From positions 83,537 through 147,536 of the forward strand of contig JAKCCV010000004.1 in the NCBI GenBank assembly GCA_021838785.1: DNA of 64,000 bases, in the 5' to 3' direction. The position numbers were made by a program, and so were the translations under genes. The notes under the pieces were generated by a model. It worked only from the letters and a program-made list of their open reading frames with translations. It did no database searches and was not told where the DNA came from. Shown here in pieces: positions 15,612-57,545 of this stretch; positions within the stretch are counted from its first letter, which is position 1, and the number at the start of each line of letters is the position of its first letter. Source of the stretch: Acidobacteriota bacterium. Lineage in GTDB: Bacteria; Acidobacteriota; Terriglobia; UBA7540.

Positions 15612-16931
15612 ATGGGACACGCCGGGACAGAGCTGGGCGCGCCAGCGATCGGTGGGGAACGGAGCGAGGACACGTTCCGCACGCTCGCGGCGTTGCTTCG
15701 CCGAGACCTGGATTTTGGCTCCTCGGACAGCGGCTATGCGTCCCATGCCATCCACCCCTTCGCCGCAAAGTTCCCGCCGCAGATCCCGCGCTTATTCATC
15801 GAGGAGCTCACGCAGAGCGGGGATTCCGTCCTCGATCCGATGGCCGGTTCCGGCACAACCATCGTCGAGGCGCTCATGCTCAGGCGAGAGGCCTTTGGCT
15901 TTGATATTGACCCCTTAGCCGTCAGGTTGTGCACTGTGAAGACGACCTGGCTAGACCCTGTGGACCTCCAAAGGCGCTGTCTAGCGATCATCGAGGACGC
16001 GTTAGACATGGGGAAGTCGGGTTCGCACCTTCGCCGTGAACTTGAGACCCGCTACGACGCGGAGACCAGAAAGTTCATAGACTACTGGTTCCTCCCCGAG
16101 ACACAGTTGGAGCTTCTGGCCCTCGTGCTAGCTATTGAGAGGGTCAGCGAGCCAGCCCCGCGCGGCTTTTTCGAGTTGGTCCTGTCCTCGACCATCATCG
16201 CGAAAACAGGGGGGGTCTCGATGGCCCGCGACCTGGCCCATTCGAGACCCCACCGCGACCCAGCCAAGAACCCGCGCAACGCTATCACCGAATTCCGACT
16301 CAGGTCAGCAAAGGCGCTCAAGAAGTTTCAGAACCTCCCGCAGCGCGTGAAAAAGGTCTTCGTTGCGGAACGCGACGCAAGGAACCTGCCCCTGCCGACA
16401 GGCTCGATTGACCTCGTCGTGACATCTCCCCCCTATGCCAATGCGCTCGACTACATGCGGGCGCACAAGTTCAGCCTGGCGTGGCTGGGATACCCCCTCC
16501 GAGCCCTGAGCGCCTTGCGGGGAAGGTACATCGGGAGCGAAAACCTCCACGGCGGTCCCACCGGCGAACTGCCGAGGAGGTCCGCCGCCGCCGTGCGCGC
16601 ACTCGCGGAGAGGGACGCAAGGAAGGCGAAGGTCTTGGCGAAGTACCTCGGCGAAATGAGAGATGCGCTCGCCGAAACGAACCGCGTCCTGAAGCCCGGC
16701 AAGGGGGCGGTCCTCGTTGTCGGGCCGTCCATAATGCGGGGAGTGCCTATCCTCACACACGAGTACCTCGCAGAAATCGGGAGCTCCGTGGGATTCCGAC
16801 TCGCCGGAGTCCAGAAACGAAGAATTGACCGCGACCGCAGAATGCTCCCTGTAAGCCTCGACCGTAACGGCCACTCGACGATCGAGCAGCGGATGCACGA
16901 GGAGTACGTGGTCGGGCTGGTCAAGGAATAA
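15612..16931 (+). CDS. type II DNA methyltransferase, N4-cytosine/N6-adenine (SPPY) class
   Basis: AdoMet motif I VLDPMAGSGTTIVEA, then catalytic motif IV DLVVTSPPYANALDY. Also HAIHPFAAKFPPQIP and RVLKPGKGAVLVVG. Confidence 0.85.
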   Translation: MGHAGTELGAPAIGGERSEDTFRTLAALLRRDLDFGSSDSGYASHAIHPFAAKFPPQIPRLFIEELTQSGDSVLDPMAGSGTTIVEALMLRREAFGFDIDPLAVRLCTVKTTWLDPVDLQRRCLAIIEDALDMGKSGSHLRRELETRYDAETRKFIDYWFLPETQLELLALVLAIERVSEPAPRGFFELVLSSTIIAKTGGVSMARDLAHSRPHRDPAKNPRNAITEFRLRSAKALKKFQNLPQRVKKVFVAERDARNLPLPTGSIDLVVTSPPYANALDYMRAHKFSLAWLGYPLRALSALRGRYIGSENLHGGPTGELPRRSAAAVRALAERDARKAKVLAKYLGEMRDALAETNRVLKPGKGAVLVVGPSIMRGVPILTHEYLAEIGSSVGFRLAGVQKRRIDRDRRMLPVSLDRNGHSTIEQRMHEEYVVGLVKE

Positions 16932-25509: not shown

Positions 25510-27909
25510 ATGCCTGAGATTTCGCCTTCTCGATCCCCAAACCCCGGCACAAAGCATTCCTTGCTCGATGCTCGACGGCTTAGCGAGCTTTGGGGCTTTT
25601 TGTTTTTGGTGGCCGGTTTGCTAATCCTGCTCAGTTTGGCATCCCACTCGATGCTCGATCGCTCCCTAGATTCCACCGGAGGTCCGGGACCGGTTCACAA
25701 TTGGATCGGCCCTGCTGGCGCTTATCTGTCGGATGCGCTCGAGCAATTTTTCGGCTGGGTGGCCTTCGCGTTTCCCCTGGCCTTCATGTACGTAGGGGCC
25801 CGCTTGCTTGTGGGGAAAAATCTCGAAGCCCCGCGAACCAAGGCGGTGGGGCTGTTGCTGCTTGCCGGCTCGCTGATGGCTTTGCTGGACTTGTTCCCTT
25901 TGACGCCGCGGATCGGGGGGATGATTCGAGGCAGCGGACTCGGCGGCGTCCTAATCGCGATGGGTTTGATCCACATTTTCAATCGCCTGGGCGCTGCCAT
26001 CGTCAGTGGTGCTGTTTTTCTCAGCTCCCTATTCCTCATTAGCAGTTTCTCCTTCGGGAAAGCATTTGACGCCGTGAAAGCCCGTTGCGCGTTCGCTCAA
26101 CGACTCGGCGCAAAGTGGCAAGCCTGGCGGGAAGCCCGCCGCGACGAGCATCTGCGTCGGCAAGCGGAAAAAAGACAAAAAGCCGGCAAAATCCCTGTGG
26201 TGGTACAAAGTGCGCGAGAACTCTCCCCTGCCCAAAGGCCCAAGATCGCTTCCTCCGCAGCCGCGCCCGCCGCTGCCTTGGGAGGCGAAACTTTTATTCA
26301 GCCTGGCAGCATAATGGATGTTCTTCGGCCGCGCCGGACCGAGGCCACGCCCAAGCTTTCCTCCGACGCCGATGCGCCGTTAAAGCGCCCCCCCGAAACC
26401 AAGTCCCCTCGAGTGGTCGGTCGAGATTCTCATGCTTACAAACTGCCGAGCACGGCGCTGCTTCGGCCGTCCGACGCGGAAGAAGCTATTGATGAAGAGG
26501 AGTTGAAGGATCGCGCCGTGCGGCTCCGGGAGAAACTCGCCGAATTCGGGGTGCTGGGCGAAGTGACGCAGATTCACCCCGGCCCGGTGGTCACCACCTA
26601 TGAATTCAAGCCGGAACCAGGCATCAAATACAGCCGCATCGTCAACTTGGCGGACGATCTCTGCCTCGCCATGCGGGCCGAGTCCATTTTGATTGACCGC
26701 ATTCCCGGCAAATCCACTGTGGGCATTGAGGTGCCTAACCTCCACCGCGAAACCATTCATCTGCGGGACTTGATCGAGTCGCGGGAATTCGCGGCCGCAC
26801 CCTCCAAGCTGAGCCTTTGCCTAGGGAAAGACATCACCGGCAAAATGAAGGTTGCCGATCTCACTCAGATGCCCCATTTGCTCTTGGCGGGATCCACCGG
26901 CTCCGGCAAAAGCGTCTCCATCAATTCGTTCATCGTCTCGATGCTTTACAAGGCAACGCCCGATGAAATCAAACTTATTATGATTGACCCCAAGCGGCTG
27001 GAACTGAGCCTCTACGAAGGCATCCCGCACCTGTTCACGCCCATTGTCACCGAGCCGAAAGTTGCCGCCAACGTGCTCCGCCGAGCCACCCTCGAAATGG
27101 AAGAGCGACTCAAGAAGCTGGCAACGCAAGGCGTTCGCAATATTGAGCAATACAACAAAATTTTTGAAGACGAGCCCACCGGAAATCTCTTCGAGCCCAA
27201 GGATGGCACGCCCGGTCCTTTGCCCTATCTGGTGATTATCATTGACGAATTGGCCGATTTGATGATGGTCGAGCCGCAAGGGGTTGAGGAATCCATCACT
27301 CGCCTTGCCCAAATGGCCCGGGCCGTCGGAATCCATTTGATTCTTTCAACCCAGCGGCCGTCCGTGGATGTCATCACCGGCCTCATCAAAGCCAACTTGC
27401 CCTCTCGCATTGCGTTCCGTGTGGCCTCCAAGGTGGACTCCAGAACGATCCTGGACTCAAACGGCGCCGAAGCGTTGCTCGGTCGAGGCGACATGCTCTT
27501 TTTGCCGCCCGGCAGCGCCCGCCTGCAACGCCTGCATAGCTGCCTGGTCACTGAGACCGAGATTGAAAAAGTTGTGGATTGGTGGAAGTCGCAATCGAAG
27601 CCGCAATACCATGAGGAGTTCCTGCAACCGCTGAAGGACAAAGAGGCTTCTGACGATGCCACAGGGGATGAAGAAGAAGACACGGAGCTCGATGAAGTTT
27701 ATGACGAAGCCGTTCGCTTGGTGGTGGAATCCGGCAAGGCTTCCACTTCATTATTGCAGCGTCGGCTGCGGCTGGGGTACGGCAGGGCGGCGCGTTTGAT
27801 TGATATGATGGAAAAAGACGGAATTGTCAGCGCGGCGGACGGTTCCAAACCGCGTGAAGTTCTGAAACGACCGGATTGGATTCAAGAGATTGACAAATCC
27901 CTCCGATAG
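25510..27909 (+). CDS. ftsK: DNA translocase FtsK/SpoIIIE
   Basis: N-terminal TM helices. Motor domain with Walker A LLLAGSTGSGKSVSIN and Walker B YLVIIIDELADLMM. C-terminal gamma domain ASTSLLQRRLRLGYGRAARLIDMMEKDGIVS. ATG at 25510 chosen. Confidence 0.95.
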   Translation: MPEISPSRSPNPGTKHSLLDARRLSELWGFLFLVAGLLILLSLASHSMLDRSLDSTGGPGPVHNWIGPAGAYLSDALEQFFGWVAFAFPLAFMYVGARLLVGKNLEAPRTKAVGLLLLAGSLMALLDLFPLTPRIGGMIRGSGLGGVLIAMGLIHIFNRLGAAIVSGAVFLSSLFLISSFSFGKAFDAVKARCAFAQRLGAKWQAWREARRDEHLRRQAEKRQKAGKIPVVVQSARELSPAQRPKIASSAAAPAAALGGETFIQPGSIMDVLRPRRTEATPKLSSDADAPLKRPPETKSPRVVGRDSHAYKLPSTALLRPSDAEEAIDEEELKDRAVRLREKLAEFGVLGEVTQIHPGPVVTTYEFKPEPGIKYSRIVNLADDLCLAMRAESILIDRIPGKSTVGIEVPNLHRETIHLRDLIESREFAAAPSKLSLCLGKDITGKMKVADLTQMPHLLLAGSTGSGKSVSINSFIVSMLYKATPDEIKLIMIDPKRLELSLYEGIPHLFTPIVTEPKVAANVLRRATLEMEERLKKLATQGVRNIEQYNKIFEDEPTGNLFEPKDGTPGPLPYLVIIIDELADLMMVEPQGVEESITRLAQMARAVGIHLILSTQRPSVDVITGLIKANLPSRIAFRVASKVDSRTILDSNGAEALLGRGDMLFLPPGSARLQRLHSCLVTETEIEKVVDWWKSQSKPQYHEEFLQPLKDKEASDDATGDEEEDTELDEVYDEAVRLVVESGKASTSLLQRRLRLGYGRAARLIDMMEKDGIVSAADGSKPREVLKRPDWIQEIDKSLR

Positions 27910-28039
27910 CTTTAGTTTGAGGACTTTCGGCAGCGTCTCCGGAAGGGCAGAAAGCCTCCATATCGCAGGCGAAGACCCCAAGGTGGGCAGCGTTGAGCTC
28001 GGCGGGACAGCGAGTTAAGGCCAGAGGGGAGACCCAAAC

Positions 28040-28384
28040 ATGGCAAATGTCGAGTCCAGCAATCGGCGCCGCAGCGGTCGCGTGGCGCATAAAATGCCTG
28101 TCATCTTGAGCGGCGTGGACCGCGACGGGTTCAATTTCGGAGAGGAAACCGAAACCGTCAGCATCAGCAAGCATGGCGCCGCCGTCCGAAGCGCCTATGA
28201 CCTTCGCTTGGGGCAAGAGGTTTCCGTCCGCACTAAAGACACGCATCGCGTCGGACAATTTGTGGTCGTTTGGGTTGGACAGCCTGGCACCCCCGGCCAA
28301 GGCCAGGTAGGCCTCGAGTGGGTGGAGGCTCGCCGATTTTGGGGCATTGATTTTCCGCCCGACGATTGGGAATCGGACGAGTAA
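28040..28384 (+). CDS. PilZ-domain protein
   Basis: N-terminal RRRSGR (RxxxR-type) and downstream TVSISKHGAAV (DxSxxG-like) motifs in a 114-aa protein. Confidence 0.65.
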   Translation: MANVESSNRRRSGRVAHKMPVILSGVDRDGFNFGEETETVSISKHGAAVRSAYDLRLGQEVSVRTKDTHRVGQFVVVWVGQPGTPGQGQVGLEWVEARRFWGIDFPPDDWESDE

Positions 28385-28494
28385 CCTCGCCGCCCCTTTG
28401 GTGGCGCTTCCCCCATCGGGCGGCGCGCGAGCGAAGCATTCTATCTCTTTGCTGTCGCTGGGTAATTGAGGGGCTGAAAATCCCGCGACATTTC

Positions 28495-28523
28495 TTGACA
28501 GCGCGCCGATTCCGTCTGACAAT
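28495..28523 (+). promoter_or_regulatory. sigma-70-like promoter for tRNA-Phe
   Basis: TTGACA (28495-28500), 17-nt spacer, GACAAT (28518-28523), 12 nt before the tRNA 5' end. Confidence 0.45.
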
Positions 28524-28535
28524 CATCTTTCAGTC

Positions 28536-28611
28536 GCCGCGGTAGCTCAGGTGGTAGAGCGCAGCCCTGAAAAGGCTGGCGTCGGCGGTTCAACTCCGTC
28601 CCGCGGCACCA
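28536..28611 (+). tRNA. tRNA-Phe (anticodon GAA)
   Basis: Acceptor stem GCCGCGG/CCGCGGC. D-arm TAGCTCAGGTGGTAGAGC. Anticodon stem-loop CAGCC-CTGAAAA-GGCTG. T-arm GGCGGTTCAACTCCGTC. CCA is encoded. Confidence 0.92.
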
Positions 28612-29019
28612 TCTTTTCAAGCACTTAGCCCGCATTTCTCAGAGAAGAATTGAAAAGGGGCTGTCGCTTCATGGCATAAGTGAAAAACTTGGACCCAAGA
28701 AGGAGGGCGCCTTTTGCAGATACGGGGTAACCAAAAATCCTTCCAATTCCATCCCCGTTTTCATCGCGAGGTGCGGGGCCGGAAGTAGCGGCTGGCCAAC
28801 CGTAGGTTGGCCAGCCAGCGTTTTTGGCGGGCCTTACGCCGGGACATAGCCTGCTCGAAGAATCAGGTCGGCGGCGCGGAAGATCCGTCGGCCTGGCTTC
28901 CTGAATGCCTTCGCATCCAAATCGAACGTGAGCTGTCGAAGCCAACATCTCGAATTTTATTTAGAAATCAAGGCTGTGCGGAAGTCAAAAGAGTGCATTT
29001 TGGACTGAGAAAGACTACT

Positions 29020-29562
29020 ATGTGGGCCATGGGAGCGACTATCGTGAAAACCGGATCGGTAGCCGAAAGTGAAAGCCGGCCGCATCCCGTTTACGAAACG
29101 AACCTGGGCAAAATGTATCTCGGTAAATCGGAGGAATTGCTCCTTCGGCATCCTCTCTGCCTTAAGAGGAATCAGGTTCAGCTAATTTTCACTTCCCCGC
29201 CGTTCCCGAAACCGTTTCCTAAGTCTGGAATTTTCCCTTTTCTGGAGGTTGAAACGGCCGCTCTCGGACGCTCGCTCGTCACCGTGGCCCTCCCAGCCTT
29301 TATCTCCCCGCTCGGGGCGTGCGCAAAGCGGACTCCTAAGTTTTCCCATTGCAAGTCGCCCAGCTATGAGGGCATCTGCGATCCTTACGTGCCGGGAACA
29401 ATCATCATGTTCAGGAACAAGAAGCCGATCCTGGTCATCAACGCCTGGCAGGACCGACCCGATGAGGGCAGAGCTGACCGGGAAGTGCTGGCTAGGGTGA
29501 GCGCAGGCCGCAGCGACGGGCGAAGTATTCGAATGATGAGTTTCGCCTCGTCGCAGTGTTGA
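29020..29562 (+). pseudogene. decayed N4/N6 DNA methyltransferase remnant
   Basis: YETNLGKMYLGKSEELL...VQLIFTSPPFP is a typical N-terminal target-module/motif IV of beta-class SPPF methyltransferases. No AdoMet FxGxG motif follows, the sequence degenerates, and the ORF runs into the convergent gene at 29492. The region looks lower in GC. Confidence 0.4.
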
Positions 29563-30019
29563 TGTCGAAATGCCTCAGAACCTCAACCATGTAGTCAATT
29601 CTGGAATCAAAATTGTCCGGCAGGGTGCTCTGGAAGCCTTCTTTCGTGACCCGGCTGGTGTCCTTTGGCACGCTCACGCCCAGCGGATTATTGTCCGCCA
29701 GCCCGGCCAAGTACCAGCTTTCGATCTCGCTCACGACGACGAGGACGTGGTGGGTGTCCAGCCCACGGAACCTCTGTGACAGGCTCTCTTTTTTCTTTGT
29801 GGGGCACGGGTGCGAGTTGATGTCCGCAAGGAGAAAATAATCGGCACCCATCGCCTTAACGCTTCGCAGGAAGGAGTCCACCTTCTCATTCTTTTGCCGC
29901 GCATACTTCCAGATTTCGATGCAGTCGTAGCGCGAACTGAGTCCGGGGATGGCGATGCGCTCCACAAACCGCTCATCGTCATCGCCTTCGACCAGCAGAA
30001 AAAGTCTTTTGTGGGGCAT
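29492..30019 (-). CDS. small Toprim-like protein (DUF4276/DUF4435-like)
   Basis: N-terminal LFLLVEGDDDERFVERI (OLD-type Toprim VEGxxD motif), then YFLLADINS and VVVSEIESWYLAGL acidic motifs. Starts 1 nt after the stop of the upstream ATPase gene. Confidence 0.6.
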   Translation of the reverse strand: MPHKRLFLLVEGDDDERFVERIAIPGLSSRYDCIEIWKYARQKNEKVDSFLRSVKAMGADYFLLADINSHPCPTKKKESLSQRFRGLDTHHVLVVVSEIESWYLAGLADNNPLGVSVPKDTSRVTKEGFQSTLPDNFDSRIDYMVEVLRHFDINTATRRNSSFEYFARRCGLRSP

Positions 30020-30020
30020 T

Positions 30021-31283
30021 TCAGGCGTGAAGCAGGTTCTGAGCGAACAACTCGTCGAGGCCCATCTCGTTCCTGAGAAAAACCTTCACGTCTTCTCTCT
30101 CCGCCGGGCGGGTGATCGTGGAAAAGCCTTCCGCGTCCCTCGAAACCAAGAGCACGTCTTCGATATCGGCGCTTCTGACAACCTCGGGGTTATGGGTCGT
30201 GACGATAATCTGCTTGTGCCGCGAAGCGTCTTTCATCATTTTAACCACGCGCGAGATCAGGTGCGGATGAATGTTGCGCTCCGGCTCCTCGATGACGGCA
30301 ACGGGCTTCCGCTCGAAGTAGAGTGCAACAATGAGCGCAGTGACGTTGAGGGTCCCGTCGGAGAGCAGCGAAGCAGGGAGAGACTTCTTCTTCGTGTAGG
30401 TCTCCTTCAGGCTGAAAAGGAGCGATTTGTCGGCAAATCTCTCGACGTCCAAGCTGGCCACGAATGGGAGCAGGTCTTGTAAGAGGTTGGCGAGCTTCCG
30501 CTTGCTGGTACCGTCCTCATTGATTTTCCTGAGAACAATTGCCAGGTTGTTGCCATCCTCTTCCAGTTCTGCCTTGCCCGTAATGGGCGTAGCCTTCTTG
30601 GGGAGCTTAGGATCGAAGTCGTAGATCGCAGCGTCCCTCAGGGAAGGACCAGCGCGGAATAGACTTAGTTCCATGATTAGCGACCGGCGCGGGACGTTTG
30701 GCGGCGCGAACCAGGGGGCGATCTCGTACTGCTCCAAGGTCACGCCCTGGGGCGGCTTGAGTTCCGCGCTCACCTTTTCCCCATCCCTCGTGACGAGCAC
30801 CTCGCCCTTGCCATGGCGTTGCCCGGGTTTGGCCCCTCGGTCCCCCGGCCCGACGGCAACGAAGTTGCCTTTGACTGATAACCGCTCGTCCACGACCTCA
30901 AACGCTTCTCTCCGTTTTCCAGTGGCAAGCGAGAAGCTGTGCGCGATTTCCGCGTCCGCCAGACCGATATAAATGTCCCGGGCTTTGGACCTTGCGACCA
31001 CCTCCACATCAGTCCGTCCAGACCCTGCGACCTCAACGTTGAGATTCTCTCCGGCTCCGATGTTGAGGTTCGTCAGGTACTCGGGGCCGCCCTGCATCTG
31101 GATCGCGTTGTTCAAGCCGTGGCGCTGAATATCCCGAAGGAACTCGATGATGCGGATAAAGTTCGACTTTCCGGAGGCGTTCGCCCCGATCAAGACGTTG
31201 AAGTCACCCAGGCGGACTTCCACGTCCTTGAAGCTCTTGAAGTTCTTAACCCGGATTGTCTTGATGGCCATCCGGCTCCCCAC
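30021..31283 (-). CDS. ABC/SMC-like ATPase (AAA_15/AAA_21 type)
   Basis: IRVKNFKSFKD...VLIGANASGKSNF (Walker A). LSDGTLNV (signature). PVAVIEEPERNIHPHL (Walker B/D-loop). IIVTTHNPEV (H-loop). An alternative ATG at 31271 (MAIKTIRV) is equally plausible. Confidence 0.85.
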   Translation of the reverse strand: MGSRMAIKTIRVKNFKSFKDVEVRLGDFNVLIGANASGKSNFIRIIEFLRDIQRHGLNNAIQMQGGPEYLTNLNIGAGENLNVEVAGSGRTDVEVVARSKARDIYIGLADAEIAHSFSLATGKRREAFEVVDERLSVKGNFVAVGPGDRGAKPGQRHGKGEVLVTRDGEKVSAELKPPQGVTLEQYEIAPWFAPPNVPRRSLIMELSLFRAGPSLRDAAIYDFDPKLPKKATPITGKAELEEDGNNLAIVLRKINEDGTSKRKLANLLQDLLPFVASLDVERFADKSLLFSLKETYTKKKSLPASLLSDGTLNVTALIVALYFERKPVAVIEEPERNIHPHLISRVVKMMKDASRHKQIIVTTHNPEVVRSADIEDVLLVSRDAEGFSTITRPAEREDVKVFLRNEMGLDELFAQNLLHA

Positions 31284-31380
31284 CTACCGAAGGCGATTTT
31301 ACCAAAGAATTGCTGCTCCTGCTGCCGCATTCTCGGGTCAAGGCGGGGGGCGGTCCAGCGGCCCGAGGGGGCGGGCCTCG

Positions 31381-32565
31381 TTAGATGATTCTCAGTTTTT
31401 TGCCGACCTCTTCGAGAATGGCGAGGGCGCGGGTGAGCTCCTCGCGCGTGTGCGTGGCGGTGACGATGGTGCGGATGCGGGCTTTGCCGTGCGGGACGGT
31501 GGGAAAACCGATGCTCTGGGCGAAAACGCCCTGCTGGAAAAGCTGGCGGGAAAATTCATGCGCGAGCGCGGCGTCGCCGACGATGACGGGTGTAATCGGC
31601 GTTTCGCTCATGCCGGTGTTGAAGCCGAGCTTTTTGAGGCCCTCCTTGAAGAACCGCGTGTTTGCCCAAAGTTGCTCGATAAGCTGCGGCTCTTCTTCCA
31701 GAACTTCAAACGCGGCGAGGCACGTGGCGGCGACGGAGGGCGGATGGGAAGTGGAAAACAGGAACGGGCGGGCGCGATGGTAAAGGAATTCGATGGTGTC
31801 GCGGGTTGAGCCGACGTAGCCGCCGAGCGCGCCGATGGCCTTCGACAGCGTGCCGACCTGGATATCCACGCGGCCGTGCAGATTGAAGTGGTCCACGGTG
31901 CCGCGGCCGTTCTTGCCGAGGACGCCCGAAGCGTGAGCGTCATCGAGCATCATGATGCAGCCGTACTTTTCCGCCAGCGCCGCGAGCTCGGGCAAAGGCG
32001 CGATGTCGCCGTCCATTGAGAAAACGCCGTCGGTGATGAGCAGCTTGCGGCCGGGGCGCGCGGCGACCTCTTGGAGGATCTTTTCGCAGGCCTCCACGTC
32101 CTTGTGGGGGAAAACCTTGATTTCAGCGCGCGAGAGCCGACAGCCGTCAATGATGGAGGCGTGGTTGAGCTCGTCGGAGATGATGACGTCTTCGCGGCCC
32201 AAAATGGCGGCGACCGTCCCGGCATTGGCGGCGAAGCCGGACTGAAAAACCACCGAGGCTTCAACCTGCTTAAAGCGGGCAATCTTTTCCTCCAGTGCCA
32301 TGTGAATCGTCATCGTGCCGGCGATGGTGCGGACAGCTCCGGAGCCGACGCCGTAGCGCTCGATGGCTTCAATGGCGCGCGCTTTGAGTTTGGGATGCGT
32401 CGTCAGCCCGAGGTAATTGTTGGAAGAAAGATTGATGACCTCGCGGCCGTCAAAACGGGCAACGGGAAGCTGCTCGCCTTCGAGCACGCGGAGCTTCCGA
32501 TAGAGCTTTTGGTCGCGGAACTTGTTGAGCTCATCGGTCAGGTATTGGAGCTGGGCTCTGGGCAT
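31381..32565 (-). CDS. kbl: glycine C-acetyltransferase (2-amino-3-ketobutyrate CoA ligase)
   Basis: [48 protein letters not shown] (PLP lysine). Class II aminotransferase alpha-oxoamine synthase fold. BioF cannot be fully excluded. Confidence 0.85.
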
Positions 32566-32745
32566 GGGTCACGCGCGCCCGCGCTGGCACGACGCTCGTG
32601 CGCGGCGTGGCGAAGAAGCCATGATACCACGGCCCGCGTGCGTGAGCGATACTCAGCCTGCGACGTCGGCCCGCGCAGTGGGACGCAGGTCCCTGAGTGC
32701 GGGTGGAAACCGCCTTGCGCCGTCCACACTGTCTGATTATGATAG

Positions 32746-33675
32746 GTGCCGATGACTGCGCGCGTAATCAACGTCGCCTCGGTTCCGCATCGCAGTCCCT
32801 TCAGATATCCCGGCGGCAAAACCTGGCTGGTCCCCTACGTCCGGCAGTGGATCCGTAGCCTCCCACATCGCCCCCTCGAGTTTGCCGAGCCGTTCGCCGG
32901 AGGCGGGATCGTGGGGCTTTCGGTTCTATTCGATGGCTTGGCGGAAAAGCTCACGCTCGTCGAAATCGACGAGGATGTCGCTTCGGTCTGGAAAACCATC
33001 CTCAGCGCTCAAGGGAGCCGTCTGGCGTCCGAAATCATCTCCTTCAGACCATCTGAAGAGTCCGTGCGGTCGTGCCTCTCCCGTACGCCGAAAAGTCAGT
33101 TTGACCGTGCCCTGCAGACGATCGTCCGCAACCGCGTCCAGCGGGGTGGGATTATGGCCCCCGGAGCGAGTCTTATGAGGCGAGGAGAGAATGGGCGGGG
33201 GGTCGCCTCTCGCTGGTACCCAGAGACCTTGGCGCGGCGTATCCTGGCCATTTTCGAGAACAGGCATCGCATTCGGTTCCGGCTGGAGGACGGAATTCAG
33301 TTCATCCACGAGAATGCTAACCGCGAGGACCTGGCATTCTTCATCGACCCGCCTTACACTGTGGCGGGCCGGAGACTGTACCTACACTCCCAGATTGACC
33401 ATGAAAGGCTCTTCGGCGAGGTCGCCAACCTAAGGGGGGAGTTTCTGATGACCTACGACGATGCCGGGCCGATTCGAGCACTGGCTTCACGGTTTCGGCT
33501 CGACACGCACGCCATCCCCATGAAGAACACGCACCACAGGGTCATGACGGAGCTGTTAGTGGGGCGCGACCTTGGGTGGGCCAGAAAGCCGCTCCAGCTT
33601 GTCCAGAATGCGCTTTTCGAAGACCTCCAGGCTTACGGGAGTGCCGGCCGTGAGGCCCTCAACCGAATCTGCTAG
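32746..33675 (+). CDS. Dam-type (D12 class) N6-adenine DNA methyltransferase
   Basis: PFRYPGGKTWL, AEPFAGGG (motif I), FFIDPPYT (motif IV). GTG 32746 or ATG 32752 start. The last ~35 residues look like a non-conserved tail. Confidence 0.85.
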   Translation: MPMTARVINVASVPHRSPFRYPGGKTWLVPYVRQWIRSLPHRPLEFAEPFAGGGIVGLSVLFDGLAEKLTLVEIDEDVASVWKTILSAQGSRLASEIISFRPSEESVRSCLSRTPKSQFDRALQTIVRNRVQRGGIMAPGASLMRRGENGRGVASRWYPETLARRILAIFENRHRIRFRLEDGIQFIHENANREDLAFFIDPPYTVAGRRLYLHSQIDHERLFGEVANLRGEFLMTYDDAGPIRALASRFRLDTHAIPMKNTHHRVMTELLVGRDLGWARKPLQLVQNALFEDLQAYGSAGREALNRIC

Positions 33676-34497
33676 CGTGGTAAAGTGGACTCGGTCCCGC
33701 TCGAGTTGAAAGTTGCCCGCCTCGCGCTCGCTGTACCTTACGACAAACCAAGCGACATCGCAATTTGTGATATGCGGAACGGTTCGCATCTTGCCCATGG
33801 CTAGAAAGAAGGCGCGGTCCACGACCACGGCCATCTTCTTCCCCCACCGGCTCAGAGTTGGGACCTTAATCTGCAACTGCGGCATCAATCTTTTTGGACC
33901 GCTGCTGCGATAATCGGGCCGCCGCAGAACATGCGGGAATGGGAGGCTGTCCGCGGTGTGGCTTCGGATTACCTCGAAGTCGTTTGTTATGGCGAGGCCT
34001 TGAAAGTAAACTGCTTGGACCTCGACAGCGCACCACAAGAGCGGGCTGCTCTTCGGAACCACCAAAATTCTGTCAATGCGGCCCACGGCCTTGGCCTTTG
34101 GCGATAGCGGCGATTCCAGAAAGCCGATCTCACCGACTACGGTCGGCTCGCTCGTGCCAAGGATTGTTTCCCCGACCCAGCCGTAGATCATCTGGTCTTC
34201 CTCGAAGCGCGCCGGACACACTGTGCGTAATTGCCCATCTTCGCCGCCCACCGGCGTGACGAGACCGGTTTCAAGCGATTTCTGATACAGGCGCAGGGAG
34301 CAGACGCCACCTACCTTGTTGCAGTCAGCTCCCTTCTGAAATGGACAGGGCGTCGCAGGCCGTTGGGCTTTTGGAAGGCATTCGATGCGCGCACGGTTGC
34401 GGCGTTCCGCCACGGTCATCGAGGTGAGCGGCACGCCATACCACTCGCCGATTCCGAACCTTAGCTGCGCGGCCTTTGGCTTGACGGGCTTCGGCAC
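33556..34497 (-). CDS. NotI-family-like restriction endonuclease
   Basis: FGIGEWYG, Cys cluster CPFQKGADCNKVGGVCSL...CPARF (NotI-type Cys4 metal site), WCAVEVQAVYFQG (compare NotI LEIQTMDFHGS) and PDYRSSGPKRLMPQLQIKVPTL. GTG start at 34497 is inferred and uncertain. Confidence 0.6.
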   Translation of the reverse strand: MPKPVKPKAAQLRFGIGEWYGVPLTSMTVAERRNRARIECLPKAQRPATPCPFQKGADCNKVGGVCSLRLYQKSLETGLVTPVGGEDGQLRTVCPARFEEDQMIYGWVGETILGTSEPTVVGEIGFLESPLSPKAKAVGRIDRILVVPKSSPLLWCAVEVQAVYFQGLAITNDFEVIRSHTADSLPFPHVLRRPDYRSSGPKRLMPQLQIKVPTLSRWGKKMAVVVDRAFFLAMGKMRTVPHITNCDVAWFVVRYSEREAGNFQLERDRVHFTTLADSVEGLTAGTPVSLEVFEKRILDKLERLSGPPKVAPH

Positions 34498-34582
34498 GGG
34501 CCTCCATGCTATCGCGGGAGGGTGAGAAAACAAAAATACTGGGCGCCCAGCGTGGAAATTCGAATCGCCTTGCCCATGGACC

Positions 34583-35065
34583 CTACTGCAGCTTGCGGCG
34601 GACTTTTTCGAGGCCCTCTTTGGCGAGCGTGTAATCGGGGCAAAGCTTGAGGGCCTGCTCGAAGTGCCAGCGCGCCTTGCCGAGCATTTCCTTGGCCGTA
34701 TAAACACGACCCAGGTTGTAATGCGGGAAGTGGTAGGACTCATAGCGCCTGGACTGGAGCGCGCGCTCGAGCCAGGGAATGGCGGCGTCGTACTGGCCTC
34801 TTTCGATCAGATAGGCGCCGATATCGTTGTAGGGATTGCCGAATTCGGGATCAATCTGGATAGCTTTCTTGCACTCGGCGATGGCGTCCTCCACCCTGCC
34901 CTGGTAATGATAGGCCCAGCCGAGGAAAGTGTAAGCCTCGGCGGTGGGATGGAGGTCGAGGGAGCGCTTGTAGAGCTCGACGGCCATCTCATAGTCGCCG
35001 CCCACCTGGTATTGGTAGGCTTCCTTAAACAATTCCCACGCTGACTGCAACTCTTCGGACGCCAT
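34583..35065 (-). CDS. TPR repeat protein
   Basis: Four or more TPR units (YEMAVELYKRSLDLHPTAEAYTFLGWAY..., AIAECKKAIQIDPEFGNPYNDIGAY...). Confidence 0.8.
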   Translation of the reverse strand: MASEELQSAWELFKEAYQYQVGGDYEMAVELYKRSLDLHPTAEAYTFLGWAYHYQGRVEDAIAECKKAIQIDPEFGNPYNDIGAYLIERGQYDAAIPWLERALQSRRYESYHFPHYNLGRVYTAKEMLGKARWHFEQALKLCPDYTLAKEGLEKVRRKLQ

Positions 35066-35754
35066 CCCGCACCCTCTCGCTATCCAACTCTCTAACTAAC
35101 ACAGTGGCCGTCACTGTGTCAATTGGCGCAGCTTGCGCCTGTCAAAGCTCTCTTAAAATGTCCCCTTGCTTACCTCGTTAAGAATGTCCCCTTTTCTGCT
35201 TTGGTTTTTTCTCCGTCGTGGGTAGGTCCCGGAGCGGAGCCCTGCCAGCCCGAAGGGCGAGCGCTTAGGGCGAAGCGCAGGGCAAGGCCAACGACGACCG
35301 CGTCGCAACCGCCGCCCCGCCCAACTCCTGCCTCTCGGCAACTCGGCGGGCGGACTGGCGCCTATCTCCTCATGGAATCAGGAAATCCTGAAACCGCCGC
35401 AGCCTCTTTGGATGAGTTGAGAGGGCGGCTCAAGTCTGCTATCCTCGGCTTTGCATCTTGGCAGGGGCTGCATTCAATGAGCAGCGGCGCGGCCTCTCGA
35501 TTCAAGGCAACAAGCGCTAAGCCTTATGGCTCGCGCGAGCAGTGGCAAGCTGGGAGTTGACCACGGGTTGAGCTACCTGCGGAGAATGCCCGGACTGCCC
35601 GGACGTCGCCTCAGGAAGTTCGCGGCAGGCGCCAGCAGAGGGTCAAACGGTCCGCCGGCCGCTGCAAGGAGAAATTGCCCCGAGCATGAGCAAGGCTCAG
35701 CCGAGCTTTCTGACAGCATGAATGCCCGCGCTTGACGGCTCCCCAGGAGAACGG

Positions 35755-54611: not shown

Positions 54612-57545
54612 TCAGAGATCTTTCTCGTGTGCGGGGCAAATCGGGACGTAGTCGCAGTGCCGACACACGTAGCCGGGGGTGGCCGGGAAGTTCATGGCTC
54701 GGATGTTCGCCGCCACCTCGAGAACCTTCGCCCGGGCTGTTTCCAGGTCTTGGCCGGTTCGGACGCTCGAGACTGCTTGGTTGTCCGCAAGGCAGTAAAA
54801 GGTGACACGCCCCACGCGCAGATTCAACTGCTCACGCGCGGCCCATGCGTAGATGGAAAGCTGTAAGCTCTGGTCAGCATCTTTCTGCGCTCGCGGCCGT
54901 CCTGTTTTGTAATCTACCAGTTCCACTTCGTTCGACCCGCCTGGCTCCATCGGATTGATCTGGTCAATGCGACCTTCCAGCCATACGTCCGTCACCTGGA
55001 ACTTAAACGCTTGTTCCAGGCGCACCTTGTCGGCCTCGATGGTCGTTACGTTCTGGCGTTCCACGAAGGCTTGTAGTTGCTTGCGCCCGCTTCGTTGGTA
55101 CGCAGCTTCTTGATAATCATCCTCGAAGCCGGCGCTTTTCCACGAGCGCAAGAAAAACTCCTCCATCTCCGCGACGCTCGGCAGCTTGTTTCGGCGAAGC
55201 TCAAAATAATGGCGAATGGTTTGGTGCATCACGTTGCCGAAGGTGAGGGCGGCTTGCGGGCCGGTCGGAATTTTCAGGCAGTGGCTGAACTTAAATTTGA
55301 GCGGACAATCAAGATAGGTTTCAATGGCGGTGGCGCTCAATTCGAGCCGGCCGTCCTTCCAGGGAAGCGAATCCTGCGCGGCCCAGGCGCGAAGCGGCGG
55401 GTGAAAGCAGTCCGGGGCAGGAAGCTCAAACAGGCGGCTCTGCCCATCCCTTTCTTGCCGAGTCGGAGAAGCCGCCGACCCCAGGCCCGTTGTTGGTGCT
55501 TCCTTCACCACCGGCAACTCGATGACCTCCAGGTCGCGGGCACGAACCACCGGTTCGGAGAGTATCTCCTCGACAAACCGTGAAGGTTTTTTGCCGGCAG
55601 GCACAACGCTGGAGATAAAGAGTTGTTCTTGAGCGCGGGTGATGGCCACAAAAAATAGCCGACGCTCTTCCTGCAGGTGGATATTGGAGAGCGGAGCGGG
55701 CCCTTTGCGCAGGTCGGCAGGAAATTCAATTACCGGCCTTCGCTCACTCTGCGGAAACCGGCGGGGTGCCAAACCCATCACCACGACGACAGGGAATTCC
55801 AGCCCCTTGGCTGCATGAACGGTCATCAATTGGATGGCGTTCGAAGGGAAAGCCTCTTCCGGCGATTCGATTTTCCCGCCCGCCTCCTGGAAATAGTCGA
55901 AGTATTCAATAAACTCGGACAACGTGCGAGTCTCACTTTTTTCTTCCCACTCGTGCAGAAATTTTTTGAAGGCTCGCACATAGAGTTCGTCGCTCTCGTC
56001 GGGTTGGAATCGCGCTTCCAGCCGCTCGAGAAGTCTGTTCAACGTGGCAGTGACCGGAATGACGTCGGCGGTTTTTCGCAGATCATTGATCAGAGCGCGT
56101 AACGTTGGCCAGCCGGTGGCCTCCAGTTCCGGTTGCAGCCGTGTCCGGCTTATTCCCTCCAACGCCTCCGCCAGCGAGCAACGGTCCTTGGCTGCGCGGC
56201 GCCGCGCTTCCATGGCCAGCGACTCGGGAATTTTCCAACGCGAAGCCAATAGCACGCGCGTCAGGCTGATATTGTCGTGCCAAGAATGAAGCAGGCGCAG
56301 GTAAGCGACGAGGTCGCGCAGAATAACCGTTGAGAGCAGAGAAAGGCCCCGAATAGCAAAGGGAAGGCGGCGGCGGCTCAACTCCTCCACCAACTGGTCG
56401 CGGTGCGTATGGGCACGGTAGAGAACCGCCACGTCGCGGTAAGCGCGCCCCTTCCGTATCAGGTCTTCAATCAAATCGGCGATACCCGCCGCTTCACTTC
56501 TTGTGTCGGGAGAGAGGAGCATGACCACGCGCGGCCCATCCTTCTTTGAGGTGACGAGCGCGGGTTGATCCCCCTCACGGTCGTTTTTGGAAATCACCAG
56601 CTCGGCCAGGCGAAGGATAGGCGGCGTGGAACGGTAGTTTTGGCTCAGATGTATCGTTCTCGTGCCCGGAAAGGTTTCCCTAAACATCGTAAAGGCTCCA
56701 TGGGCCGCGCCGCGGAATCGGTAGATGGCCTGGTCGCTGTCTCCGACGGCAGTGAGGTTGTACGGCGGGCCAACAAGCCGTGACAAAAGCTGAACTTGAC
56801 CGTAGTTGGTGTCCTGAAATTCATCCACGAGAACGAATCGAAACCGGCGACGGTATGACTCGCGGAGTTGCGGTTCGCGGTCGAACAAGCGGACGGTTTC
56901 GCTAATCAAGCTGCCGAAGCTGGAGCACCCTGCCTCCTCCATCAAGCGCCGGCTGCACGTAAACACGCGAGCCAGCTCCTTGAGCTTCTGAACGGCCTCA
57001 GCTTCTTTCACTCGGATAGCGGGGTCGAGCGTGGGCGCGAGCCGTTCAAAGGCCTTCTCAGCCTGTGCGACATATGCCGCAAAATCTTCCGGCTCAACCA
57101 ACTCATCCTGACAGCGGGCGAAAAAATCATTGAGGTCGTGAAGAAATGCACCGGGCGAAGCGAGTTTCTGATAGTGCTCCAACCCGAGCTGTTCGATGCG
57201 GCGCCGCAAAAAAATCCAAATATCCGTCTGGTCCAGCAATCGCCGCTCAAAGTGACGCTGCTTGAGAACTCCGAGACAGAACGAATGAAACGTTGAAACC
57301 CTCGGCGCCGGTGCCCCCGAAACCAAAGCTCGTCGGACCCGTTCTCCCATTTCGGCGGCAGCCTTCTCCGTATAGGTCAACGCCAGGATATTTTCCGCAG
57401 CTAAGCCGGGCGAATTCTCGAGTAGATGGAGCATCCGCTCGACAATCACCCGAGTCTTCCCGCTCCCTGGGCCGGCAATGATAAGCAGCGGCCCGTCGCC
57501 ATGCTCAACGGCTTGCCGTTGCTGAGGATTAAGTTCCATGACCAT
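54612..57545 (-). CDS. UvrD/PcrA-type superfamily 1 helicase fused to a C-terminal PD-(D/E)XK (Cas4/AddB-like, Cys-cluster) nuclease
   Basis: LLIIAGPGSGKT (Walker A), VLVDEFQDTN, TVHAAKGLEFPVV, VAITRAQ. C-terminal nuclease region with GRIDQI, ELVDYKTG and CRHCDYVPICP. Confidence 0.9.
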   Translation of the reverse strand: MVMELNPQQRQAVEHGDGPLLIIAGPGSGKTRVIVERMLHLLENSPGLAAENILALTYTEKAAAEMGERVRRALVSGAPAPRVSTFHSFCLGVLKQRHFERRLLDQTDIWIFLRRRIEQLGLEHYQKLASPGAFLHDLNDFFARCQDELVEPEDFAAYVAQAEKAFERLAPTLDPAIRVKEAEAVQKLKELARVFTCSRRLMEEAGCSSFGSLISETVRLFDREPQLRESYRRRFRFVLVDEFQDTNYGQVQLLSRLVGPPYNLTAVGDSDQAIYRFRGAAHGAFTMFRETFPGTRTIHLSQNYRSTPPILRLAELVISKNDREGDQPALVTSKKDGPRVVMLLSPDTRSEAAGIADLIEDLIRKGRAYRDVAVLYRAHTHRDQLVEELSRRRLPFAIRGLSLLSTVILRDLVAYLRLLHSWHDNISLTRVLLASRWKIPESLAMEARRRAAKDRCSLAEALEGISRTRLQPELEATGWPTLRALINDLRKTADVIPVTATLNRLLERLEARFQPDESDELYVRAFKKFLHEWEEKSETRTLSEFIEYFDYFQEAGGKIESPEEAFPSNAIQLMTVHAAKGLEFPVVVVMGLAPRRFPQSERRPVIEFPADLRKGPAPLSNIHLQEERRLFFVAITRAQEQLFISSVVPAGKKPSRFVEEILSEPVVRARDLEVIELPVVKEAPTTGLGSAASPTRQERDGQSRLFELPAPDCFHPPLRAWAAQDSLPWKDGRLELSATAIETYLDCPLKFKFSHCLKIPTGPQAALTFGNVMHQTIRHYFELRRNKLPSVAEMEEFFLRSWKSAGFEDDYQEAAYQRSGRKQLQAFVERQNVTTIEADKVRLEQAFKFQVTDVWLEGRIDQINPMEPGGSNEVELVDYKTGRPRAQKDADQSLQLSIYAWAAREQLNLRVGRVTFYCLADNQAVSSVRTGQDLETARAKVLEVAANIRAMNFPATPGYVCRHCDYVPICPAHEKDL

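Follow-up and report, generated by a model that had tools for sequence, protein, structure and literature searches.

A divergent HEC-01-type pair of ABC-ATPase and stand-alone Toprim genes in an Acidobacteriota genome, a candidate OLD-like defence module

A two-gene pair encoding an ABC-type ATPase and a small stand-alone Toprim protein was analysed in a 64,000-nucleotide stretch of DNA from an Acidobacteriota bacterium (Terriglobia; UBA7540; GenBank assembly GCA_021838785.1, contig JAKCCV010000004.1, positions 83,537 to 147,536 of the forward strand), hereafter the window. The pair is assigned with high confidence to the catalogued candidate type HEC-01, of which it is a divergent member, within the OLD-like group of ABC-ATPase and Toprim modules; it is not a new kind of system. 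The best overall explanation, to which a probability of roughly 0.6 is given, is a HEC-01-type, translationally coupled, OLD-like defence module that is accessory in this genome, with the defence role proposed by analogy at moderate confidence and the mechanistic details at low confidence. The two genes and their junction are as follows, in window coordinates.

30021-31283, minus strand: ABC/SMC-type ATPase gene (HEC-01A type), from the listing of open reading frames (ORFs); 420 residues when read from the GTG at 31283
29492-30019, minus strand: gene for a stand-alone Toprim plus helical-domain protein (HEC-01B-like), from the ORF listing; 175 residues, ATG start
30017-30023, minus strand: gene junction TGA-A-ATG, from the sequence; 1-nt spacer, without a separate Shine-Dalgarno sequence

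Both ORFs had been picked out in an original prediction, which a model made from the letters of the window alone, and their coordinates and all of the motifs that it quoted are present in the sequence, as is the start of the small gene 1 nt after the ATPase stop codon. The ATPase ORF does run to 420 residues, as had been proposed, but the true start is probably the ATG at 31271, four codons inside the GTG-initiated frame; a GGGAG Shine-Dalgarno sequence precedes this ATG by 5 nt, and the resulting protein of 416 residues is exactly as long as database entry P0109. Because the spacer is a single nucleotide and the Toprim gene has no separate Shine-Dalgarno sequence, the arrangement of the junction suggests that translation of the two genes is coupled.

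The product of the first gene is an ABC ATPase of the SMC/Rad50/OLD type with every catalytic motif intact, represented by GANASGKSN (residues 33-41), LSDGT (307-311), IEEPERNIHP (331-340) and TTHNP (362-366); the ABC/AAA_15-type assignment made earlier is upheld by Pfam matches to AAA_21 (2.1e-31) and AAA_15 (4.4e-23), with SMC_N also matched. Invariant across 43 homologues are G33 and N35-K39 of the Walker A motif, Q64 of the Q-loop, S308-T311 of the signature, E332-P334 of the Walker B motif and H364 of the H-loop, a degree of conservation that, judged from the alignment, exceeds chance. The AlphaFold2 (AF2) model of the protein is of moderate confidence (predicted local distance difference test score (pLDDT) 76, predicted template-modelling score (pTM) 0.80), and combines an ABC head with an all-beta insert at approximately residues 80-190, an unusual insertion as modelled. 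Foldseek matched this model to PtuA, retron PtuA, SMC and Rad50 heads, TsOLD and GajA (E ~1e-12, TM 0.37-0.48), with AriA not among the top 50 fold matches. Profiles of solved structures matched the ATPase over the Walker A segment or the signature/Walker B segment only; the PDB profile of AriA (E=3.9e-4) was confined to the signature and Walker B segment.

The Toprim protein carries the motifs LLVEGDDDERF (residues 8-18), LLADINS (63-69) and SEIESW (97-102), and Pfam returned nothing for it above threshold, the sole hit being OLD-like_TOPRIM at E=0.074. Its AF2 model is confident (pLDDT 93.5, pTM 0.87), with a beta-alpha-beta-alpha-beta-alpha-beta core followed by a helical bundle, and the top six matches in a Foldseek search of the PDB were all C-terminal (Toprim) regions of OLD nucleases, among them 6nk8 (E=1.5e-3, probability 0.99) and 6p74 (TMq 0.53). 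On the strength of this model the 175-residue protein is predicted to have an OLD-like Toprim fold, as the original prediction had proposed from the motifs, naming structure prediction as the check. Kinship of the family to OLD is visible by fold only and not in a PDB sequence profile, with a profile search of the family against the PDB giving chance-level matches to MAD2 only, and neither OLD nor AriB. A Foldseek search of viral predicted structures gave nothing significant for the protein, an RloB-like protein standing at rank 12 (E=0.17).

Across 49 homologues of the Toprim protein E11, G12, D15, D66, E100, W102, Y103 and K126 are invariant, and E98 nearly so; the second position of the DxD motif is mostly Asn (N68), not Asp. 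In the model, E11 lies just after strand 1 and D66 at the end of strand 3, as expected for a Toprim domain. The two-metal site and catalytic lysine of BpOLD are formed by E400, E404 (i+4), D455-x-D457, T506-x-E508 and K562 (PMC6755086), to which E11, D15, D66-x-N68, E98-x-E100 and K126 would correspond in order, a correspondence drawn from residue order and secondary structure, not from superposition. Because the conserved residues follow the order of the BpOLD site, the protein is probably an active Mg2+-dependent nuclease, and the putative two-metal effector of the pair.

PADLOC-DB models were used for profile searches of both proteins, of the 49 relatives and of the window ORFs. The ATPase is best matched by the HEC-01A model PDLC04178 (E=2.7e-53, 179.5 bits), with residues 4-418 aligned to profile positions 6-380 of 399, and six further HEC-01A models match it below 1e-38; other models matching the ATPase are mad3 (2.7e-32), AriA (4.7e-31, partial), AbiLi (2.7e-28), and Old and GajA (~1e-18 to 1e-21). 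Matches of the 175-residue protein to HEC-01B are weak (~25 bits; PDLC04194, 2.3e-6; PDLC04191, 3.1e-6) and are followed by mad4 (1.2e-3), while PDLC04191 is matched by all 49 of the aligned Toprim relatives (best E 2.5e-11); mad4 and AriB are each weakly matched by 14 of these. Weak Pfam matches among the same relatives are divided between DUF4276 (22/49, best 3.4e-5), DUF3226 (22/49) and OLD-like_TOPRIM (20/49), and because of this split the family is placed, at the level of sequence profiles, in the clan of these three but in no single one of them. The earlier view that the small protein is closer to DUF4276 is borne out to the extent of those 22 relatives, but the protein itself does not match DUF4276 (PF14103) at E<=1, and DUF3226 is matched by an equal number.

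HEC-01, or Hma-embedded candidate 01, was described in 2024 from examples found embedded in Hma systems, and comprises HEC-01A, an ABC ATPase, and HEC-01B, a TOPRIM protein in which the OLD metal site is conserved (Payne et al., bioRxiv 10.1101/2024.01.29.577857). Its features recur in the pair studied here: a HEC-01A match, a HEC-01B match, albeit weak, adjacent genes and a predicted OLD-like Toprim fold. Shared with HEC-01 are also the gene order, with the ABC ATPase first and a small, separately encoded Toprim protein (~190-200 residues in HEC-01) after it, a putative OLD-like metal site, and an ATPase insert 1 made of beta strands, and it is the HEC-01 hidden Markov models (HMMs) that both proteins match best. 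The pair differs from HEC-01 in standing alone, not inside Hma or another multigene defence system, with no Hma genes near it, embedding being the criterion by which HEC-01 was discovered and not its definition; its small protein, at ~25 bits against the HEC-01B models, represents a divergent subfamily. The suggestion of a possibly uncharacterised variant in the original prediction is not sustained, as the type is already catalogued by PADLOC as HEC-01 and both proteins match it; an already described system, which that prediction had itself named as counter-evidence, is thus part of what was found. In 2026, protection of E. coli B against one or more of the phages T4, T5 and T7 was reported for a HEC-01 representative from a cold seep (PMC12881386). 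HEC-01 has been reported among the most abundant candidate systems of cold-seep microbes, and another 2026 study still gives it as a candidate.

Linkage of the two genes was counted over 82 independent loci. In 81 of these the Toprim gene is immediately preceded, on the same strand, by an ATPase homologue (gap -14 to +12 nt, mode 1-3 nt), in keeping with the split two-gene architecture first read from the window. The sole exception is an orphan Toprim gene in a Kapaibacterium metagenome-assembled genome (L071, 2568-3119), which has no ATPase homologue upstream, the upstream ORFs being unrelated. Divergence of the ATPase tracks that of its Toprim partner (Pearson r=0.73), although only loosely by rank (Spearman rho 0.32). 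The pair forms an obligate unit, inherited together across Bacteria and Archaea, and its genes are probably translationally coupled.

An exhaustive profile search resolved a discrete Toprim family of 1,369 clusters (50% identity) at E<=1e-3, 1,130 of which are retained at E<=1e-10. The best 150 representatives are all stand-alone proteins of ~166-228 residues, none exceeding 228, with no ATPase-Toprim fusion (Rosetta-stone) form among them. A metagenomic protein of 277 residues (P0038), with 60% identity and 98% coverage to the small protein, bears precomputed AAA_15/AAA_21 Pfam marks, which might mean that ATPase and Toprim are partly fused in it or that gene calling ran on by mistake across the 1-nt junction. 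When one genome per species was scanned, 411 of 185,579 genomes had a Toprim relative, and these belong to a wide scatter of phyla in both domains: bacterial carriers include Terriglobia, Planctomycetota, Latescibacterota, Chloroflexota, Bacteroidales, Nitrospirota, Thermotogae and Clostridia, and archaeal carriers include Methanoperedens, Methanoregula, Archaeoglobaceae, Thermococci, Bathyarchaeia and Hodarchaeota.

In the window, the pair lies between kbl and a methyltransferase gene relic, beyond which comes a tRNA gene.

29029-29208, plus strand: methyltransferase gene relic, from PF01555 protein matches, tblastn and blastn
28536-28611, plus strand: tRNA-Phe(GAA), from ARAGORN; Rfam tRNA, 65 bits

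Genomic context was compared across 80 metagenomic loci whose kbl protein is 85-89% identical to that of the window (L092-L171), and in none of these close relatives does the pair stand next to kbl. Most of the 80 loci share an upstream block of a tetratricopeptide repeat (TPR) gene and kbl, while the 3' side of kbl varies from locus to locus (eight loci inspected); none of the ATPase, the Toprim protein, the NotI/D12 pair described below, tRNA-Phe, PilZ or FtsK was found within 8 kb in the 80 loci. Because the pair is absent from all 80 relatives and the 3' flank of kbl varies, it is located at a synteny breakpoint. The pair is accessory in this genome, and the accessory, variable stretch described in the original prediction is confirmed.

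Restriction-modification gene turnover has taken place around the pair, recorded by the relic on one side and an inserted NotI-like restriction-modification pair on the other. The relic comprises the first ~59 codons, through the TSPPFP motif IV, of an N4/N6 DNA methyltransferase gene (PF01555), is convergent with the pair, and lacks the remaining ~250 codons. It shares 60-75% identity with PF01555 proteins of 310-315 residues (P0230-P0232; E 1e-18 to 8e-14), its limits by tblastn and blastn are window 29029/29032-29208, and its nucleotide identity to one further locus (L172) is 76%. Intact methyltransferase homologues are followed by a convergent gene of 225 residues, possibly the cognate endonuclease, which is absent here. 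Confirmation of the relic came solely through a large protein search; Pfam on the 251-residue plus-strand ORF did not reveal it, and tblastn against plasmids gave only E=0.6. On the far side of kbl, a D12-class adenine methyltransferase gene (plus strand) and a NotI-like restriction endonuclease gene (minus strand) occupy 32746-34743, convergent and overlapping by ~120 nt, as an insertion between TPR and kbl that none of the 80 close relatives carries. TPR and kbl are mostly separated by 10-700 nt, but by 1.2-3 kb in several loci (among them L092, L101, L145 and L165), and insertion hotspots seem to flank kbl on both sides in this lineage. A publicly annotated gene of 180 residues, on the opposite strand and overlapping the 3' end of the Toprim gene, is probably an artefact seeded by the relic.

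The tRNA-Phe(GAA) gene is the single tRNA of the whole window (ARAGORN, Rfam). Its described adjacency to the pair holds in that it bounds the accessory stretch on one side, but it lies ~880 bp from the Toprim gene, with the relic in the spacer between. A classical tRNA-integrated island was considered and is not supported, with neither att-type repeats of the tRNA-Phe 3' end nor integrase genes found.

By analogy with PARIS, OLD and Gabija, a dimer or oligomer of the ATPase would hold or regulate the nuclease and sense an infection cue, with the variable beta insert as the candidate sensor, trigger or docking surface. ATP binding or hydrolysis would license the Toprim nuclease to cut nucleic acid, which could be DNA as in OLD and GajA, or tRNA as in AriB; cutting would stop replication of the phage or mobile element, possibly with host growth arrest as the cost.

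Several observations weigh against this explanation of the pair as a HEC-01-type defence module. The first HEC-01 representative to be tested gave no protection against BASEL and classic coliphages (bioRxiv 10.1101/2024.01.29.577857), and the 25-bit match to HEC-01B, beside 180 bits for HEC-01A, indicates a divergent branch that is not close to the tested systems. To these may be added the way in which the active-site correspondence was drawn, and the presence of Toprim relatives in only two of 2.9 million viral contigs, unlike OLD and PARIS. Neighbouring genes point the same way: when the two ORFs closest to the pair on either flank were classified in 37 other loci, housekeeping genes prevailed (def, fmt, ABC transporter, metallophosphoesterase, dienelactone hydrolase) and defence genes were few, the Pfam counts including ABC_tran (8), Formyl_trans (7), Metallophos (6), Pep_deformylase (5) and DLH (4), and guilt by association is therefore weak for this HEC-01-like subfamily. 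Finally, the position of the pair is conserved within the clade in Planctomycetota, in the order metallophosphoesterase, ABC-transporter ATPase, pair, def (peptide deformylase) and fmt (methionyl-tRNA formyltransferase), and in Latescibacterota, in the order dienelactone hydrolase, pair, a gene of unknown type and an ExbB-like gene. The defence neighbourhoods that had been looked to for its homologues were mostly not those observed.

The position beside def-fmt in Planctomycetota may have been retained by vertical descent or may mark a shared hotspot; the loci concerned, from Pirellulales and Sedimentisphaerales, are L019, L022, L050, L057 and L063, and also L056, L060 and L080. In other Terriglobia the pair is found upstream of der, beside variable cargo (RelE/MqsA or an IstB-like ATPase). 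No conserved third gene accompanies it, the recurrent neighbours being clade-specific housekeeping genes and not a component of the system; the pair is a mobile two-gene cassette, usually alone, and not a typical resident of defence islands. The two carriers in the viral collection are IMG/VR contigs (L090, L091) with 34-36% identity and an adjacent ATPase gene, the pair of L090 lying at the very end of its contig.

This solitary setting among housekeeping genes, the tight coupling and fixed gene order, the patchy distribution, consistent with horizontal transfer, and the one orphan Toprim copy without an ATPase (L071) would also suit a selfish addiction or toxin-antitoxin-like cassette, in which a Toprim nuclease toxin is restrained by the ATPase and the pair is kept because its loss is harmful, not for phage defence. 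Such a cassette is considered rather unlikely, given that no antitoxin-like small DNA-binding partner is present and that one HEC-01 representative did protect against phage (PMC12881386); defence and addiction can moreover coexist, AriA of PARIS being labelled 'antitoxin' in PDB 8v45, yet belonging to a defence system.

Unlikely, too, is a reading in which the Toprim family and the beta-insert ATPase are a separate, minimal lineage of split OLD modules that serves chiefly for something other than classical phage defence, or that has a new trigger or substrate. Such a lineage might cut RNA or tRNA in response to stress, or act in repair, under the control of the ABC ATPase; alternatively, it might defend the cell through a trigger and substrate that differ from those of PARIS, OLD and Gabija. 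Bearing on this are the size of the family (~1,130 clusters at 50% identity), its carriers, which are mainly uncultured anaerobic bacteria and archaea, and the placement of the pair, usually alone among housekeeping genes and, in Planctomycetota, at a conserved position beside def-fmt.

With relatives in only ~0.2% of species genomes, no copy of the pair in any of the 80 close relatives, unrelated sites among Terriglobia and closest profile matches that are all to defence families, a housekeeping function in nucleic-acid processing or repair, for example as a RecF/SMC-like ATPase with an RNase M5-like Toprim nuclease and no immune role, is quite improbable, even though the neighbours are mostly housekeeping genes, the position is conserved in Planctomycetota (between the ABC-transporter ATPase gene and def-fmt) and in Latescibacterota, and in OLD the active site is similar to that of RNase M5 and of DnaG (PMC6755086).

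Very improbable is a canonical PARIS (AriA/AriB), or a mis-split component of Gabija, OLD or MADS, for which the AriA (4.7e-31), GajA/Old (~1e-18 to 1e-21) and mad3 (2.7e-32) matches of the ATPase and the weak AriB and mad4 matches of 14 relatives each might speak, but against which stand the missing DUF4435 and the absence of AriB and AriA from the top 50 fold matches, the modelled all-beta insert, the sub-threshold MAD3 score and lack of mandatory MADS genes, the distance of the only UvrD-type helicase, and the separation of the two genes in 81 of 82 loci.

The HEC-01-type defence module has its nearest comparators among the defence systems that combine an ABC ATPase with a Toprim protein, which have been grouped together as PARIS, AbiL, MADS3-4, OLD and Gabija (PMC11464382). 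PARIS resembles the pair in its split ATPase and Toprim genes within one operon, in its AAA_15/21 ATPase, and in the presumed logic of a sensor ATPase that controls a released nuclease. It differs in AriB, a protein of ~35 kDa (~300 residues) with DUF4435, whereas the protein here has 175 residues and no DUF4435 match at E<=1, this family also not being among the 25 Pfam families listed as matched by most of the 49 relatives; in AriA, which has helical insertions (IS1 and the IS2 coiled coil) and forms a hexameric propeller, whereas the insert modelled here is all-beta; and in being often phage- or satellite-borne, which the family here almost never is. No AriB model matched the small protein at E<=0.01, AriB is absent from its top 50 fold matches, and the AriA HMM matches to the ATPase are partial (residues 282-369) and weaker than that of HEC-01A. 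The distinction from canonical PARIS drawn in the original prediction therefore stands.

OLD provides the closest solved structures for the Toprim protein (6nk8, 6njv, 6p74), the same order of conserved acidic residues and lysine, and an ATPase head of the ABC type. In both class 1 (P2 Old, TsOLD) and class 2 (BpOLD; Gabija GajA) the ATPase and Toprim domains are fused, whereas here they are encoded by separate genes; class 2 also needs a UvrD-like partner, whereas no helicase is linked to the pair, and the second DxD residue is here mostly Asn instead of Asp. Gabija itself was considered on account of a GajB-model match in the window, and rejected: the only UvrD-type gene (54615-57545, minus strand; 977 residues), which gives this strong match, lies 23 kb away and is AddA-like, with a C-terminal PD-(D/E)XK nuclease.

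An AAA_15/21 ATPase with a small Toprim partner (DUF4276 or RloB) is likewise found in MADS (MAD3-MAD4) and AbiL (AbiLi-AbiLii), which have been listed as sister systems (PMC11464382; PMC12065111). MAD3 and MAD4, however, act in an eight-gene methylation-associated system that is absent here, and the NCBIfam MAD3 model gives the ATPase 142 bits, far short of its cut-off of 420. In the published MADS model MAD6-8 are mandatory within 10 genes, and no large MADS genes occur among the 20 called neighbours (+/-10 kb), the genes in this range including FtsK, PilZ, kbl, the D12 methyltransferase, NotI, TPR, ScpB, uracil-DNA glycosylase (UDG) and TonB receptors. A mad8 model matches one window ORF of unassigned position (5e-37), and the same model matched eight flanking ORFs at other loci, at which Pfam ABC_tran was likewise matched by eight ORFs. 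AbiL differs in that the AbiLi match of the ATPase (2.7e-28) is weaker than that of HEC-01A and in the lack of an RloB-type partner, since no RloB or AbiLii match appears for the small protein or in the family list of its relatives.

As a HEC-01-type module, the pair would add a well-delimited divergent branch, spanning Bacteria and Archaea, to the OLD-like ABC-ATPase and Toprim immune modules, with a nuclease partner that, at 175 residues, is among the smallest in that group. It opens no new category, and would not surprise a specialist in defence systems. Because the Toprim model is confident and the ATPase model moderately so, and because the candidate catalytic residues are clear and the gene junction invariant, it offers a tractable case for how an ABC ATPase controls a stand-alone Toprim nuclease.

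A scan of the region for promoters and terminators gave site counts not above those of shuffled sequence, and an Rfam scan of 27900-35200 found no RNA family besides tRNA. A perfect 12-bp GC-rich hairpin at window 28790-28816 (plus strand), GGCTGGCCAACC-GTA-GGTTGGCCAGCC, is followed by a T run ~180 nt 3' of tRNA-Phe; it could be a terminator, with the terminator count of the region at the shuffled level. The PADLOC scan of the window also matched RTasHel/RTasRmuC, SspH and PD-Lambda-5_B. A second PF01555 DNA methyltransferase gene is located at 15612-16928 (plus strand), 12.5 kb from the pair.

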